Virus record (IMG/VR): IMGVR_UViG_3300028802_000021
Coordinates: 1-51,974 of that record
Strand: one strand, 5' to 3'
DNA from: a virus
Lineage: Duplodnaviria; Caudoviricetes
Length of the DNA stretch: 51,974 bases
Part shown: piece after piece, positions 1,011 through 43,751 of the stretch
How the letters are laid out: the number at the start of each line of letters is the position of its first letter
Numbering within the stretch: position 1 is the stretch's first letter
Notes under the pieces: model-generated
Told to the model about the DNA's origin: nothing
Seen by the model: only the letters and a program-made list of their open reading frames with translations
The model's database searches: none
Position numbers and translations under genes: made by a program

Positions 1011-1475
1011 ATGAGCAAGATCATGGGAACGATATGGGTGTGCACCGATTGCGTGCTCGTGGAAGCCAATGGCGAGTGTGACCCGGAACGACCAGCCGAC
1101 CTGCCAAAGCCACTGTCGGCTATCGATGAGGGCTATTCGGTGACGCTCGGGCTGGGCCGTGAGGATCACGTGGAGGGTTGCCTCCCGGGCGATGAATACG
1201 ATGATTGCGAGTGCGACCGTAACCCGTTTTCGACGCTCTCGTGTGAGGGTTGCGGCGACTGGAATGCCGGTGAGCGTCACGCTCTCACGTTGTGGCTCGA
1301 ACGGCACATTGTCCGTGAGCGCACGTACGGCCTGGGAACGGTTCGCCGGGCTGTGTGCACGTGTGGTGACGAGTCGGAGCCGATTGCTAAGGGCTGGTCG
1401 GTGGAGCAAGTTGCCGCCGGGCATGCGGTGAACGGTGTGCTCCTGCCGTCGCCGGACTGGGGGCACGCGAAGTGA
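1011..1475 (+). CDS. Cys-rich putative Zn-binding protein
   Basis: SD GGAGG; CTDC, CEC, CEGC and CTCG motifs. Confidence 0.7.
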   Translation: MSKIMGTIWVCTDCVLVEANGECDPERPADLPKPLSAIDEGYSVTLGLGREDHVEGCLPGDEYDDCECDRNPFSTLSCEGCGDWNAGERHALTLWLERHIVRERTYGLGTVRRAVCTCGDESEPIAKGWSVEQVAAGHAVNGVLLPSPDWGHAK

Positions 1476-5931: not shown

Positions 5932-6306
5932 TCACTTGGCGGCCTCTCTGGCGACGGTGTCGGCCCGGCTCACCTCAGGGGTGACGGTGATCTTCCCGGC
6001 GGCGAGGGTGGTGACTACCCCGGTTGCGGAGATGACCTGTACATCCCAGACGCCCTTGATCGGCATGGTGGTGGAGGTGGCGGACGGCATGGTGACGTTG
6101 ACGGCGTTGGCGAGGACGGTGCAGGTGAAGTCCAGGGCGGTGGGGGCGTCTGCGGTGGCCCGGATTTGTGCTTCGGCGGTGTAGCCGGTGAGGTCGAAGT
6201 CGACGCCGGCGTCGTCGGTGACCAGGATCTTCAGGTTGATGTCGTCCCCGGCGTACAGGTTGAGGTCGACGGTGGCGGGCCGGGCATCGATTATGGTCGC
6301 AGCCAT
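5932..6306 (-). CDS. BppU/LtfC-like beta-sandwich virion protein
   Basis: DLNLYAGDD...DLTGYTAEAQIR...GVWDVQV...TLAAGKITV pattern; SD GAGGAG. Confidence 0.6.
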   Translation of the reverse strand: MAATIIDARPATVDLNLYAGDDINLKILVTDDAGVDFDLTGYTAEAQIRATADAPTALDFTCTVLANAVNVTMPSATSTTMPIKGVWDVQVISATGVVTTLAAGKITVTPEVSRADTVAREAAK

Positions 6307-18834: not shown

Positions 18835-19358
18835 TGCGGCATCACCGCCTCGATGTCGATCGCCGTCGGGGACATGACGGTGCCGAGGGCGCCGAGAATG
18901 CCCCGGAGCCCGACGACTACCCGGGTTTCTTCCACTACCGGTGTGGACTGCATCGACCAGGCGGGTTCGGGTTCTTCGCCCCGGAATCGCTGCGCCCGGT
19001 AGAGCCTTCCGGCGCAGTCGACCACTGTCATGATCCGGCATTCGACGAGTGCGTCGTTGTCGAGCATCCACCCTTCGGTGCAGAACCAGATCCCGGCGGT
19101 GTGGTTGGCGACGTCGGCGACAGGCAGGCGCCCCTCTTTGGCCATGTCGACGGTCAGCTGGGCCAGGTGGAGCAGGGCCACCGCCGGGTTGCTGTAGGGC
19201 ATTCCGGCGGGCTGGAGCGGGTATTCGACACCGTCGAGGTGGCCTTGCTCGTTTTCGACGATCATGCCGAGCATCGGTGCGACGTCCCAGCCGTGTTCGT
19301 GGATGCGCCCCTCAAGGATGGACGCGATTTCCAGGACGTCTTTCGGTTCGGGAATCAT
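18831..19358 (-). CDS. Paralogue 2 of tandem triad (PPA1309-like?)
   Basis: GWDVAPMLG...YPLQP...VDCAGRLY...GLRGIL...AID. Confidence 0.75.
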   Translation of the reverse strand: MIPEPKDVLEIASILEGRIHEHGWDVAPMLGMIVENEQGHLDGVEYPLQPAGMPYSNPAVALLHLAQLTVDMAKEGRLPVADVANHTAGIWFCTEGWMLDNDALVECRIMTVVDCAGRLYRAQRFRGEEPEPAWSMQSTPVVEETRVVVGLRGILGALGTVMSPTAIDIEAVMPQ

Positions 19359-19954
19359 CCGCCCGCCCCGACCTGGGCGACCTTGTCCATGTCGATGGCG
19401 CCGGTGGACATGTTGGCGCCGAGCCCGAGCAGGAGGCGGCGCAGGGCAATGAGCACCTCCCGGTCGTAGGTGATCTTGTCTGTGTCGCCGGGGTCGGTGA
19501 TCAACAGTTCGGGGTCTTCGTCCCGGAACCGGTTCACCCGGAAGACGTACCCGCCGCAGTCGACGATGATCACATGCCGGATGGTCTTCCCCGCCGGATT
19601 CTCCGACGCTCTCATGCCTTCGTGTTCCATGCCGTCGGGAACCAGGTGCGCCTCGCAGCTGAACCAGAGAGCCATCAGGGCGTCACCTGCGCCCTCCATT
19701 CCGGCATCGGTGATCAACTTGCGATGATCGGTGGTCCGTTCCAGGGTGAGATCGGCGATGTTCCGCAGGGCGCTCAGCGGATCTGTAGGGATGAGTTCTG
19801 CGGGCTGAACAGGGAACTTCTTCACCCCGGCACCGAGCCCGCCAAGGTCGCTGACGCTGCCGAGTACCGGCGCCGATCCCCAGCCCATCGAGTGGGCCGC
19901 TCTCTCGATCATCTCGGCGCAGTAGATCATGTTGTCTATCGAATCGGGGATCAC
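19355..19954 (-). CDS. Paralogue 1 of tandem triad (PPA1309-like?)
   Basis: GWGSAPVLG...FPVQP...VDCGGYVF...ALRRLL...AID; GTG with GAAAGAGG SD. Confidence 0.7.
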   Translation of the reverse strand: MIPDSIDNMIYCAEMIERAAHSMGWGSAPVLGSVSDLGGLGAGVKKFPVQPAELIPTDPLSALRNIADLTLERTTDHRKLITDAGMEGAGDALMALWFSCEAHLVPDGMEHEGMRASENPAGKTIRHVIIVDCGGYVFRVNRFRDEDPELLITDPGDTDKITYDREVLIALRRLLLGLGANMSTGAIDMDKVAQVGAGG

Positions 19955-20007
19955 CGGATGTCGACCTCTTTCGTGTTGCATGCGATAGCGGGGCGGCAAA
20001 GGGAGCA

Positions 20008-20013
20008 TATAGT
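20008..20013 (+). promoter_or_regulatory. Candidate -10 element TATAGT upstream of the tRNA-like element
   Basis: TANNNT in a divergent intergenic gap, ~20 nt before the element; no clear -35. Confidence 0.4.
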
Positions 20014-20032
20014 CGGTGCCGGAAATCCTCCA

Positions 20033-20113
20033 GGCCGGACTCGGCGTCCCCGGAAGGTCAGGTCCCCCGTACCTGACGCCCCGGGAGTGCAGGTTCGATT
20101 CCTGCACCGGCCA
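20033..20113 (+). ncRNA. tRNA-like element (acceptor stem + T-arm, aberrant D and anticodon arms)
   Basis: GGCCGG/CCGGCC-A; TGCAGG-TTCGATT-CCTGCA; GTCAGGT-CCCCCGT-ACCTGAC. Confidence 0.65.
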
Positions 20114-20114
20114 C

Positions 20115-20372
20115 ATGAATGACATTCGGTTCTGCCCTGACCATGGAGACCCGCTCACCCCCGGCAGCGAATGGCCCTGCCCCGTCGCCTGCGACAGCGA
20201 CCCCATCGACGTCACCACCTGCCACCACTTCGCCGCCGAAATGGACCGGCGCATCCGCGACGTCGAAATCGGCGGCAACTACTACACCCTCCGCACCGAC
20301 GACAACGGCAACCGAGTCACCCAGGAATACCGCAACCACCAGCCCTACGGAGAACCGAAGGCAATCCGATGA
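20115..20372 (+). CDS. Cys-containing hypothetical protein
   Basis: ATG two bases after the tRNA-like element; CPDH...CPVAC. Confidence 0.6.
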   Translation: MNDIRFCPDHGDPLTPGSEWPCPVACDSDPIDVTTCHHFAAEMDRRIRDVEIGGNYYTLRTDDNGNRVTQEYRNHQPYGEPKAIR

Positions 20373-20629
20373 CCTACGACCACGAACACCCCTGCCCGTC
20401 AGACAAATGCATCGCCGTCCTGCGGCGGCTCGGATACGACATCCCCAAAGAAGTCGACTGCTGCGTCTGCCTCGCCCGGGAACAACAGAAAAAAGCGGGC
20501 CACCCCGAAAGGTGACCCGCTTTCCCGCCATTACCCCTGAACTCAGGTTCCCCCCAGAGAACCCTGCGTCCCAATCTCATCCGGCCCGAAACCACTGACA
20601 CTAAGTCCGTGTTTTCGGATACCGGAACT

Positions 20630-21839: not shown

Positions 21840-22060
21840 GGACAGGTCAGGGCACATCCAGGGCACATCAGGTCGAGCGAGGGTGGTCATCGTTGGACAC
21901 GGTTGGATAGTAAAACCCCAGGTCAGAGGCGGTTTGGGTCATGTCCGCCCTGGTCCGTTTAGTCCGTGTCCAGTTGTTTCAGGAAGTTACCAAATGTGCC
22001 CTCTGACCTGGGGTTTTGTCGGCAACCAGGCCCCTGAGGGCACATCTAGGGCACACTAGG
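21840..22060. other. attP region with arm-type repeats
   Basis: AGGGCACA at 21849, 21860, 22037, 22048 and inverted at ~21995; 18-bp IR 21912-21929/22000-22017; directly downstream of int. Confidence 0.75.
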
Positions 22061-23233
22061 GAGGATCTGGCGCAGGTTTTCTCCGACGATCGCCCTCGTC
22101 TTGCCGTCACGGTCGGCCACCAGATGTGAGTAGTACTTGAGGGTCGTCGATTGGTTCGCGTGACCGAGTAGCTCCGAGACCTCAGATATCGGCCTGCCCT
22201 TGTAGATCAGCGTGGAAGCGTAGTAGTCGCGAAGCTGATGCATGGTGACCGACGCCAGCTGCTGAGATCGCACGGTGTTCTGGATGGCCTCAGTTCCCGC
22301 AAGCGCATTGGCCGCGACGGCGAATTCTTCGGCGGCGGCACGACGGGCTCGTTCCCAGGGCCAGGCCTGGAAGACCCGCGCATTCATCAGCCCATTCTGG
22401 GGTCGGGTGAAGAGGTATCCCCCGGGCGCTGGCGGGAATTCCCTCACGTGGCGAGCGAGCATGTCGATCATCTCCAGCGGTACCGGGATGATGCGATCCT
22501 CGTAGTTCTTCAGGGGGCGTGAAACGATCCCCCGACCGCGTTCCATCTGAAGCTGCTGCTGAAAGTGCACGGTGGGTGATTCCGTGTTGGCCCAGTTCAC
22601 GTCGGCCATCCGGAGGCCGAAAAGCTCGCCCTGACGTCCACCAGTCGCGGCGCCGAGTGCGATCAGCGCACGATAGCGGGCATCGATATTGGCGATGAGG
22701 GCGGCAACCTGGACTGCCTCCAATAGCCACATCTTCGCGGGTGCACCCTTCGGCAGTCTGACGCCGATGCAGGGGTTCCCGGAGATAACCCTCTTCAGCG
22801 CGGCGGCTTTGAAGATTCCTCGCACAAGAGTCATGTGCGTGCGAATGGTGCTCGCCTTGAGGCCGCTCTCAAGCATGGACTGGATCAAGACGGTGATGTC
22901 ATCGTCCTTGATGGCGAGCATCTGCTTGGCACCCAGGACCGGGTAGACGTGCAGCTTGAGCGTCCCCTTACTGGCGACACGGTAGTTATGCGACGCCGTC
23001 AGCCTCTCGTGCCAGGCGTCGGCGAAATCCCTGAAGGTCTGCTTGCCCTTCTTGGGGTCGACGTAGGTGTGATCCCGAATGGATACTTCCGTGGTGAGCT
23101 GGAATGCTTCGGCGAGACTCTTGCGCTCGAAGTTCCTCTTGCGCTGGACGCCTTGCGGGTTGCGCCAGCGGTATTGCCAGCCGACCCGCTTTCCGTTGTC
23201 GTCAAAAAGCTCGCTGATGGTCCCTTTACTCAC
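22046..23233 (-). CDS. int: Tyrosine integrase
   Basis: TGGRQGELFGL (R), PLK (K), HQLRD (HxLR), LLGHA, YYSH (Y); GTG with AGGTGG SD. Confidence 0.95.
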   Translation of the reverse strand: MSKGTISELFDDNGKRVGWQYRWRNPQGVQRKRNFERKSLAEAFQLTTEVSIRDHTYVDPKKGKQTFRDFADAWHERLTASHNYRVASKGTLKLHVYPVLGAKQMLAIKDDDITVLIQSMLESGLKASTIRTHMTLVRGIFKAAALKRVISGNPCIGVRLPKGAPAKMWLLEAVQVAALIANIDARYRALIALGAATGGRQGELFGLRMADVNWANTESPTVHFQQQLQMERGRGIVSRPLKNYEDRIIPVPLEMIDMLARHVREFPPAPGGYLFTRPQNGLMNARVFQAWPWERARRAAAEEFAVAANALAGTEAIQNTVRSQQLASVTMHQLRDYYASTLIYKGRPISEVSELLGHANQSTTLKYYSHLVADRDGKTRAIVGENLRQILPSVP

Positions 23234-23321
23234 TGGCTTTCCACCTGACTGGGGGTCCGGATGATGATCTTGCTGGTGGCACCCTAGATCACCAGGGCAC
23301 AGAACACAACTACCAAGCGAC

Positions 23322-23528
23322 CTATCGGAGCTGGTTACGCACCCACTCGTCGACATCCTCCAGCCGGTAGCGGACGTTGCGTCCAATCTTGTGCCGGCGC
23401 GGACCTGTTCCCCGGGTGTTCCACCGATAGACCGTGTTATCCGGGACCTGGAGGTAAGCGGCAACATCTTCCACCGTGAGCATCGGCTGACGAGTATCGG
23501 CAACCGATACCTGCTTGCGGTTAGTCAT
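23322..23528 (-). CDS. xis: Excisionase
   Basis: MLTVEDVAAYLQVPDNTVYRW...GP...KIGRNVRY; upstream of int. Confidence 0.85.
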   Translation of the reverse strand: MTNRKQVSVADTRQPMLTVEDVAAYLQVPDNTVYRWNTRGTGPRRHKIGRNVRYRLEDVDEWVRNQLR

Positions 23529-43556: not shown

Positions 43557-43630
43557 AGCGCGGTGGAGCAGCCCGGTAGCTCGACGGACCCATGATCCGG
43601 AGGTCGCCAGTTCGAATCTGGCCCGCGCCA
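43557..43630 (+). tRNA. Initiator-like tRNA-Met (CAT), non-canonical anticodon arm
   Basis: AGCGCGG/CCGCGCC-A; GAGC-AGCCCGGTA-GCTC; ACGGA-CCCATGA-TCCGG; GCCAG-TTCGAAT-CTGGC; CCA not encoded. Confidence 0.85.
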
Positions 43631-43751
43631 CAGGGGGGTTGTTCGCGCGTTCCGAGCTTGTTGGACGCTCAGCCGGTCTTGCTCGGACCTTCGGCGCGGA
43701 CAACTCCCCGTCCAGCCCGGCCCTGATGGGGTTCTGGGGGGATGGAACACG

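Follow-up and report, generated by a model that had tools for sequence, protein, structure and literature searches.

What is a structure shaped like a transfer RNA (tRNA) doing directly in front of a start codon in a phage genome? The question is raised by the virus record IMGVR_UViG_3300028802_000021 of IMG/VR, in which an 81-nucleotide (nt) tRNA-like element at 20033..20113 (+) is followed, after a single C, by the ATG of a small gene. The window, as the whole stretch analysed is called here, is this complete record (51,974 base pairs [bp]; CheckV completeness 100%) and has a G+C content of approximately 64%. Its host is probably an actinobacterium, because the phage terminase is approximately 49% identical to the closest terminases, which come from Mycobacterium phages. 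The explanation that we favour, and to which we give an even chance, is that the element would act as a phage "t-element": cleavage by RNase P and RNase Z would free a messenger RNA (mRNA) with almost no leader.

Architecture of the tRNA-like element

The element and the junction that follows it comprise these features:

20033..20113 (+): tRNA-like element, 81 nt, delimited by fold, conservation and covariance model
20033-20038 / 20107-20112 (+): the two acceptor strands, 6 bp, read in the sequence
20039-20051 (+): D-region, 13 nt, invariant in the alignment
20057-20077 (+): hairpin with a 7-bp stem and a C-rich 7-nt loop (20064-20070)
20083-20087 (+): GGGAG, invariant in the alignment
20088-20106 (+): T arm with a 6-bp stem and a 7-nt consensus T loop, read in the sequence
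20113 (+): discriminator A, read in the sequence
20114 (+): spacer, a single C, which is C at all four loci compared
20115..20372 (+): small gene of 85 amino acids (aa), ATG at 20115-20117, no Shine-Dalgarno (SD) sequence, start placed by aligned N-termini

A sequence-only reading of this DNA had described an 81-nt element with a 6-bp acceptor stem, a 6-bp T stem, a canonical T loop and a discriminator A, and each of these parts can be read in the sequence. The acceptor/T stack can also be read as 7+5 bp, with an A.A mismatch at pair 7:66 (tRNA numbering). The motif GGTTCRANYCC, by which t-elements are defined (PMC1920247), is present and invariant in the element. The minimum free energy (MFE) of the element is -44.2 kcal/mol, compared with -33.05 +/- 3.71 for shuffled sequences (z -3.0; 2 of 200 shuffles are as stable). 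When both strands of the window are scanned for T-loop motifs with flanking stems, nine sites have at least four of five T-stem pairs, and all five pairs are found at two sites alone: a tRNA-Met and the element. The tRNA-Met (CAT anticodon; 43557-43631, plus strand; 51.2 bits) is the sole canonical tRNA in the window; it sits between the minus-strand portal and terminase genes and is therefore antisense to the structural operon.

With canonical tRNA and tRNA-Sec (RF00005 and RF01852) the element shares a 12-bp acceptor and T stack, the consensus T loop and a discriminator base, but it lacks a D arm of normal size, U33 and an encoded CCA, and it scores far below threshold. Position 2 of the hairpin loop is C in all four homologous sequences described below, and the stem has 7 bp rather than the 5 bp of the anticodon type. 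A D stem of at most 4 bp, with a 5-nt loop, can form in three of the four sequences. The shrunken D stem proposed earlier is thus possible in those three, but it is indistinguishable from an alternative pairing: models of the D-region with a 4-bp D stem and with a 3-bp outer stem score alike. Two invariant C tracts, at element positions 16-19 and 33-36, are both able to pair with a single invariant G tract at 51-53. As for the 5-bp outer extension also proposed for the hairpin, three pairs (CCC/GGG) are conserved and the remaining pairs are not.

The tRNA detectors had been expected to return a pseudogene or no call, and ARAGORN and Rfam are indeed silent at the element. ARAGORN makes no call there in the window when run for tRNA and transfer-messenger RNA (tmRNA), and six option sets, including mitochondrial and intron modes, give no call in any of the four homologous sequences. 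A search of the window at the level of the Rfam gathering scores has the tRNA-Met at 43557 as its sole match, and no family in Rfam 15 matches the element. In a permissive search, the best Rfam match of the element is tRNA-Sec at 18.1 bits (23.5 bits at L033) against a gathering score of 47, and the UCA anticodon by which a tRNA-Sec would be recognised is not in the hairpin loop.

These results bear on several ways of assigning the element to a known class. An unusual decoding tRNA (for instance Gly-CCC-like), or else a stretch encoding the N-terminus of the small protein, is a highly improbable identity. The CCC in the middle of the 7-nt loop would suit the decoding tRNA, but the missing ARAGORN calls, the tRNA-Sec scores, the C at loop position 2, the 7-bp stem and the absent D arm all argue against it. 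A tmRNA was rejected, as neither ARAGORN nor Rfam makes such a call. Y RNA was considered because the YrlA type has a tRNA-like domain with a T arm and is found in actinobacteria and mycobacteriophages; according to an excerpt of PMC4201824, it accompanies a Ro60 (TROVE) gene and its RNA ends form a separate Ro-binding stem. This assignment was also rejected: no TROVE (PF05731) gene is present in any of the four records, although control genomes respond, and there is no Rfam match. The sequence-only reading had further offered a decoy for anticodon nucleases or tRNA-sensing defences. That proposal found no specific support, as the loop has no U33 and no recognisable mimic of an anticodon loop.

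Homologues, covariation and the attP alternative

The element was compared across four loci: the window, L013 (the same phage as L006), L021 and L022. A 21-mer covering the T arm and acceptor strand matched eight metagenome contigs, of which one (L006) is a homologue, five carry ordinary tRNA-Tyr or tRNA-Arg genes in tRNA arrays, and two (L004 and L009) have no ARAGORN call. A 17-mer from the 5' part of the element matched 21 IMG/VR contigs; three of these (L013, L021 and L022) have the whole element, and the remaining 18 lack the T arm and are unrelated, mostly coding sequence. The records of L013, L021 and L022 are 50,872 bp (direct terminal repeats, 100% complete), 49,711 bp (98%) and 18,287 bp (36%) in length, respectively.

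A covariance search in phages, which the sequence-only reading had suggested, thus places the element in three other phage contigs. With a model trained on the four sequences, each record yields a single copy, scoring 101-104 bits (101.2 bits for the element in the window). The next-best scores are 31.1 bits for an odd tRNA in L002 and 30.5 bits for an ordinary tRNA-Tyr; the L002 sequence was not counted as a member, its score being about that of the tRNA-Tyr. Further searches did not enlarge the set. A viral scan with the T arm of the L021 type returned L021 and L022 only, a profile of the four sequences recovered just the three contigs already known, a 14-sequence profile search for related loci found none, and no relatives were found by a search of related loci with either flanking protein alone.

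The L002 sequence is an 86-nt tRNA (1188-1273, minus strand) in a viral contig of approximately 58% G+C, and it shares the T arm and acceptor strand with the element. Its D arm looks normal, its bulged anticodon arm is 11 bp long with CGC at the anticodon positions of a 7-nt loop, and a CCA is encoded; ARAGORN reports it as tRNA-??? with a 4-base anticodon, and Rfam as tRNA-Sec at 30.1 bits. Separately, an array of eight tRNAs (Glu, Lys, Tyr, Gln, Leu, Asp, Leu, Leu) is common to L003, L008 and L011 (and L010). One of the array contigs is filed as a Gemmataceae metagenome-assembled genome (MAG) and two as metagenome, and all three share the same 171 nt of sequence surrounding the tRNA-Tyr; the array resembles a tRNA island that is mobile or of phage origin.

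The four elements are each exactly 81 nt long and align without a gap, with 56 of 81 columns invariant. Positions 1-19 and 51-80 are invariant except for one covarying pair, and the other variation falls within positions 20-50, that is, in the hairpin and its flanks. Within the hairpin, loop positions 33-38 are invariant; the stem varies with compensation, and its length is fixed at 7 bp. Identity between lineages is 73-83% for the element. The downstream gene has 54-64% nt and 38-49% aa identity between lineages and the upstream gene 34-40% aa identity, both with many indels. Between L021 and L022, the element is 94% identical and the flanking genes 84% and 52% (aa).

Standard base pairs occupy 94.3% of the pair cells of the proposed structure, compared with 86.8 +/- 2.1 in column shuffles, and substitutions in both partners are seen at 5 of the 22 pairs, four of which belong to the hairpin and one to the T stem (slid partners give 0-2). 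The first value is reached by none of 500 shuffles and the second by 8 of 500, counts that are not probabilities because there are only four sequences, effectively three lineages. RNAalifold agrees with the proposed structure. The T-stem pair 59:71 forms the series A:U, G.U, G:C, and a G.U state also occurs in two hairpin pairs; these G.U states pair on the plus strand only, and the RNA therefore fits the plus strand only. By these comparative data, the element is a selected, non-coding, plus-strand RNA, and neither chance nor decay. Unconstrained decay in homologues, which would have spoken against the original proposal, is the opposite of what is seen: there are no indels, and the changes are compensatory.

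The same comparison bears on whether the element is the core of attP, that is, an integration-related tRNA fragment, or a decaying tRNA pseudogene. Phage attP sites commonly carry tRNA 3' halves, and a tyrosine integrase gene lies 1.9 kb from the element. However, the element has both acceptor strands, its RNA fold is maintained by compensatory and G.U changes, and its 81 nt are free of indels between indel-rich flanks. It is also retained whether the phage has a tyrosine (G000, G001) or a serine (G002, G003) integrase; because relatives swap the integrase type yet keep the element, the element is not attP. A 23-mer of the T arm and acceptor strand has one exact match among GTDB species genomes, in a tRNA-Tyr of a Gemmataceae (planctomycete) MAG, and no actinobacterial tRNA in those genomes matches it. 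We therefore regard this explanation as very improbable.

The better attP candidate is the set of repeats at 21849-22060, just downstream of the tyrosine integrase gene. An arm-type repeat of 10-12 nt occurs there four times, as two tandem pairs (21849-21872 and 22037-22060), and a perfect 18-bp inverted repeat (21912-21929 / 22000-22017) surrounds a 70-nt core of lower G+C. The exchange of the tyrosine integrase for a large serine recombinase takes place at the same position, approximately 2 kb from the element.

The start-codon junction and its possible processing

The start codon of the small gene lies one C after the discriminator at all four loci (ATG at two, GTG at two), and no SD-like 4-mer is present at -18..-4 of this start at any of them. 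The geometry reported for the window, an ATG two bases past the discriminator with no SD, is thus the same throughout. The small-protein N-termini align from this codon. At three of the four loci an in-frame stop lies within the element, with no in-frame start between that stop and the +2 start; for this reason the element is not coding. A crude SD statistic for the window (an SD-like 4-mer at some start in 46 of 70 open reading frames [ORFs]; background 0.18) is biased by start choice and was left unused.

The small protein belongs to a family of 13 members (90% clusters) or 55 representatives (50% clusters), of which 12 and then 23 sequences were read. C7, P8, H10, W20, C22, C36 and a QEYRxH motif are invariant, and these Cys and His residues make it likely that the 85-aa protein binds zinc. 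Its AlphaFold2 (AF2) model has a predicted local distance difference test (pLDDT) score of 91.8, and no fold match at E <= 0.001 was found in the PDB or BFVD.

Gene callers extend the small gene through the element wherever no in-frame stop occurs; as a result, public protein sets include N-termini that are artefacts, translated from tRNA-like RNA. The read-through ORF was adopted for P0002 (the window), P0009, P0010 and P0015. The over-long calls P0009, P0010, P0015 and P0054 contain a translated T arm and acceptor, with the same codon count before the real start, and in P0054 the spacing between element and start is kept although the acceptor sequence differs; this geometry is inferred from protein sequences only. 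The long forms P0023, P0025, P0028, P0035 and P0055 do not have the T-arm signature.

The features upstream of the element that enter into the processing model are these:

20004..20015 (no strand assigned): 12-nt block, putative core of a divergent promoter, invariant at all four loci
20014..20032 (+): variable leader from the -10-like box to the element, 19 nt in the window and 89, 30 and 75 nt in the relatives

The 12-nt block contains a -10-like TATAGT (20008-20013, plus strand) overlapping TATGCT (minus strand); the TATAGT reported at approximately 20 nt upstream of the element is found 19 nt upstream. From its sequence, this block may function as a promoter. The leader spacers cannot be aligned between loci. 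In L013, the 89-nt leader contains a perfect 11-bp inverted repeat (a potential long hairpin) that is absent from the other three, and since the repeat is confined to L013 the leader is an insertion hot spot. The leader of L022 contains, at 5991-6032, a second tRNA-like "minihelix" of approximately 45 nt with a 6-bp acceptor-like stem, an 11-nt linker, a 5-bp stem and a T-loop-like 7-nt loop; its MFE fold pairs the ends, and its stability is not above that of shuffles (z -1.25).

In the processing model, a plus-strand transcript from the TATAGT region would comprise the leader, the tRNA-like element, the small gene and a terminator. Host RNase P would cut at 20032/20033, and RNase Z or another 3' endonuclease would cut at, or one base after, the discriminator (20113/20114). 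These cuts would remove a structure that buries the SD-less start region, leaving an mRNA that begins at or one base before the ATG or GTG and on which translation could then start without a leader. A second role may belong to the 81-nt RNA that is cut out, whose C-rich loop is invariant. The element would be tRNA-derived, with loss of a decodable anticodon arm; it has kept the 6+6-bp coaxial helix and the consensus T loop, and possibly a GG for the elbow.

An invariant tRNA "top half", a fixed one-base distance to the start and a variable leader of 19-89 nt are what a processing-signal model predicts. A minihelix of acceptor and T arm is enough for bacterial RNase P, RNase Z and the CCA-adding enzyme to act on. 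In excerpts of the cited papers, mRNA ends are generated where non-canonical t-elements guide cleavage by RNase P and RNase Z, the latter cutting at or 1 nt past the discriminator (both PMC1920247), mycobacteria translate leaderless mRNAs with ATG or GTG at the 5' end (PMC4633059), and Mycobacterium tuberculosis has RNase Z, with 32 of its 45 tRNA genes lacking CCA (PMC10673834).

The closest parallels to the proposed mechanism are the t-elements of plant mitochondria (excerpt of PMC1920247) and the tRNA punctuation of animal mitochondria. Shared features are a non-canonical cloverleaf with a well-kept T arm motif that adjoins an mRNA end, the proposed RNase P and RNase Z cuts, and an mRNA with little or no 5' leader. 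The present case differs in that it concerns a phage, probably of actinobacteria, and in that a single element serves a single small gene with its own promoter-like box and has an invariant loop and D-region. In MALAT1 (which yields mascRNA) and MEN-beta, a tRNA-like structure in a long transcript is cut by RNase P and RNase Z, and a small tRNA-like RNA is released. Those systems are eukaryotic and set the 3' end of a long RNA, whereas the phage element would set the 5' end of an mRNA.

Several observations weigh against the processing model. The one sequencing run in which the locus was found is a DNA run, possibly its source, and no RNA run contained it. The four sequences are effectively three lineages, L021 and L022 being so alike. 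The acceptor stem never varies and therefore stands on its likeness to tRNA, and the 3-bp outer stem is also invariant and so has no covariation behind it. A scan with the sigma-70 consensus found no full promoter at the element unit. Three features go beyond what processing by itself would account for: an invariant D-region (positions 7-19), invariant loop positions 33-38 and a hairpin kept at 7 bp. If the cut fell immediately after the discriminator, the message would retain one leader nucleotide (C), and in mycobacterial reporter selection RTG at +1 was necessary (excerpt of PMC4633059); Propionibacterium acnes, an actinobacterium, has no obvious RNase Z (excerpt of PMC3848588). Finally, in the window alone, an ORF from GTG 20016 (20016-20372) reads through the element, with an SD-like GGGAG 10 nt upstream of the GTG.

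The read-through ORF is also what speaks for the element as the N-terminus of the small protein, the second half of the identity judged highly improbable above, and gene callers make the same extension in relatives. However, this read-through is not conserved in the relatives, and the in-frame stops at three of the four loci interrupt it. As for the tRNA-mimic processing element originally proposed, a selected RNA, the invariant top half and the exact start junction support it in part, but the single C does not fit a strict rule for leaderless starts.

The invariant C-rich loop and D-region hint at a second role for the element. Such a role is central to the first competing explanation, in which the element is a trans-acting small RNA (sRNA): the tRNA-like scaffold would serve processing or stability, and the C-rich loop would be a seed or a protein-binding site. 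The seed would pair with G-rich (SD-like) sites in phage or host, and the adjacency to the gene would be secondary. Consistent with this, loop positions 33-38 and the D-region are invariant while the stem changes with compensation, the hairpin is held at 7 bp without length change, and in all four records the unit lies in a divergent control region approximately 2 kb from the integrase. The actinobacterial 6C RNA and the firmicute RsaE/RoxS use C-rich loops as seeds, and the CI RNA of phage P4 and the C4 RNA of P1 are RNase P-processed regulators. The P4 CI RNA and the P1/P7 C4 RNA share with the element an origin as phage sRNAs from a leader transcript in an immunity or control region; they differ as antisense regulators without a full acceptor/T-arm mimic. 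Against the sRNA explanation, the fixed one-base start junction and the missing SD are left unexplained, no Rfam family matches, and the 40 loop-complement sites in the window include none that is notable at a conserved ribosome-binding site (an uninformative scan). We consider a trans-acting sRNA unlikely as the whole explanation, and it is able to coexist with processing.

A second competing explanation is that the RNA is not cut and acts in cis as a translational operator. The tRNA-like fold would hide the start region, or the ribosome-binding site would be split, with the invariant GGGAG (positions 51-55) as the SD and the T hairpin bringing it to approximately 8 nt from the start. The two C tracts would then be competing anti-SD partners, or a tRNA-binding protein would be the repressor. 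Hairpin-bridged ribosome-binding sites are found in T4 genes 25 and 38, and the thrS operator is a tRNA mimic beside a start codon. The GGGAG motif is invariant at all four loci, its codons are kept in P0009 and P0010, and the W of P0015 corresponds to TGGGAG. In the sequence, a closed T hairpin leaves 7-8 nt between GGGAG and the start codon, and in the MFE folds of L021 and L022 the partner of G51-53 is the C tract of the loop rather than C17-19. However, a hairpin could bridge the site without a consensus T loop or an exactly abutting acceptor stem, yet both are invariant, and both structure models place the GGG of the motif in base pairs. In addition, the acceptor of P0054 differs in sequence and yet the geometry is preserved, a pattern that fits recognition of shape and not of an SD. 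An uncut operator is quite unlikely in our judgement, though it might also act together with processing.

Returning to the processing model, we tentatively entertain a broader form of it, for which the prospects are doubtful. In this form, cutting one transcript would yield both a tRNA-shaped sRNA and a leaderless mRNA for the small zinc-binding protein, and the cut would be a switch in the lysogeny-control region. The C-rich loop of the sRNA would act on host or phage targets, or would occupy tRNA-binding defence or translation factors.

Neighbouring genes and significance

The remaining features of the transcription unit and its surroundings are as follows:

19355..19954 (-): divergent 199-aa gene, no family assignment, start at GTG 19954
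19964..19973 (-): 10-nt block with the SD (AGAGG, minus strand) of the divergent gene, invariant at all four loci
20369..20515 (+): possible second ORF of 48 aa, uncertain; ATGA overlap, G+C of third codon positions (GC3) 0.77 in frame
20489..20526 (no strand assigned): G+C-rich hairpin terminator, strong on the minus strand and weaker on the plus strand

The minus-strand neighbour had been read as starting at ATG 20008. GTG 19954 is the most likely start, because relatives begin at the same residues and a conserved SD block lies upstream. A terminator hairpin follows the small gene at all four loci, including L013, L021 and L022. The 48-aa ORF is present in this phage only, where it is inserted before the terminator, and it has no family match. 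Comparison of the neighbouring proteins with Pfam, PHROG and NCBIfam gave no match, and the best score in the ESM Atlas is 0.83, below the level at which a match was counted. The AF2 model of the 199-aa protein has a pLDDT of 65.5 and gives fold matches at noise level only (best Z 6.3).

The window encodes capsid, portal, protease, tail tube and terminase proteins, as well as RecT, an exonuclease and the tyrosine integrase (22046-23503, minus strand). No isolated phage shows similarity to the window at the DNA level (megablast with 2.5 kb; blastn with 501 nt), and tblastn searches of isolated phages with the small protein, P0054 and P0022 gave no match.

Signals resembling tRNA that create mRNA ends are textbook knowledge in mitochondria and are known for a few eukaryotic long RNAs. 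Our literature search found tRNA-like processing signals in organelles and eukaryotic long RNAs, and phage tRNA mimics (Y RNAs). For phages and bacteria it turned up no element that places the 5' end of an mRNA at a start codon, with the proviso that the motif may be listed in the supplements of PMC10690425, a 2023 catalogue of candidate structured RNAs from IMG/VR known to us in excerpt.

If the processing model is true, the element would represent a new way for phages to exploit RNase P and RNase Z, and leaderless mRNAs would be made naturally by processing and not by transcription start. The model would also account for the mis-extension of small-gene ORFs by gene callers, and for gene expression in actinobacteria the element would offer a small, transferable "cut here" tag. 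A new tRNA-shaped regulator could, in turn, be indicated by the invariant loop and D-region.

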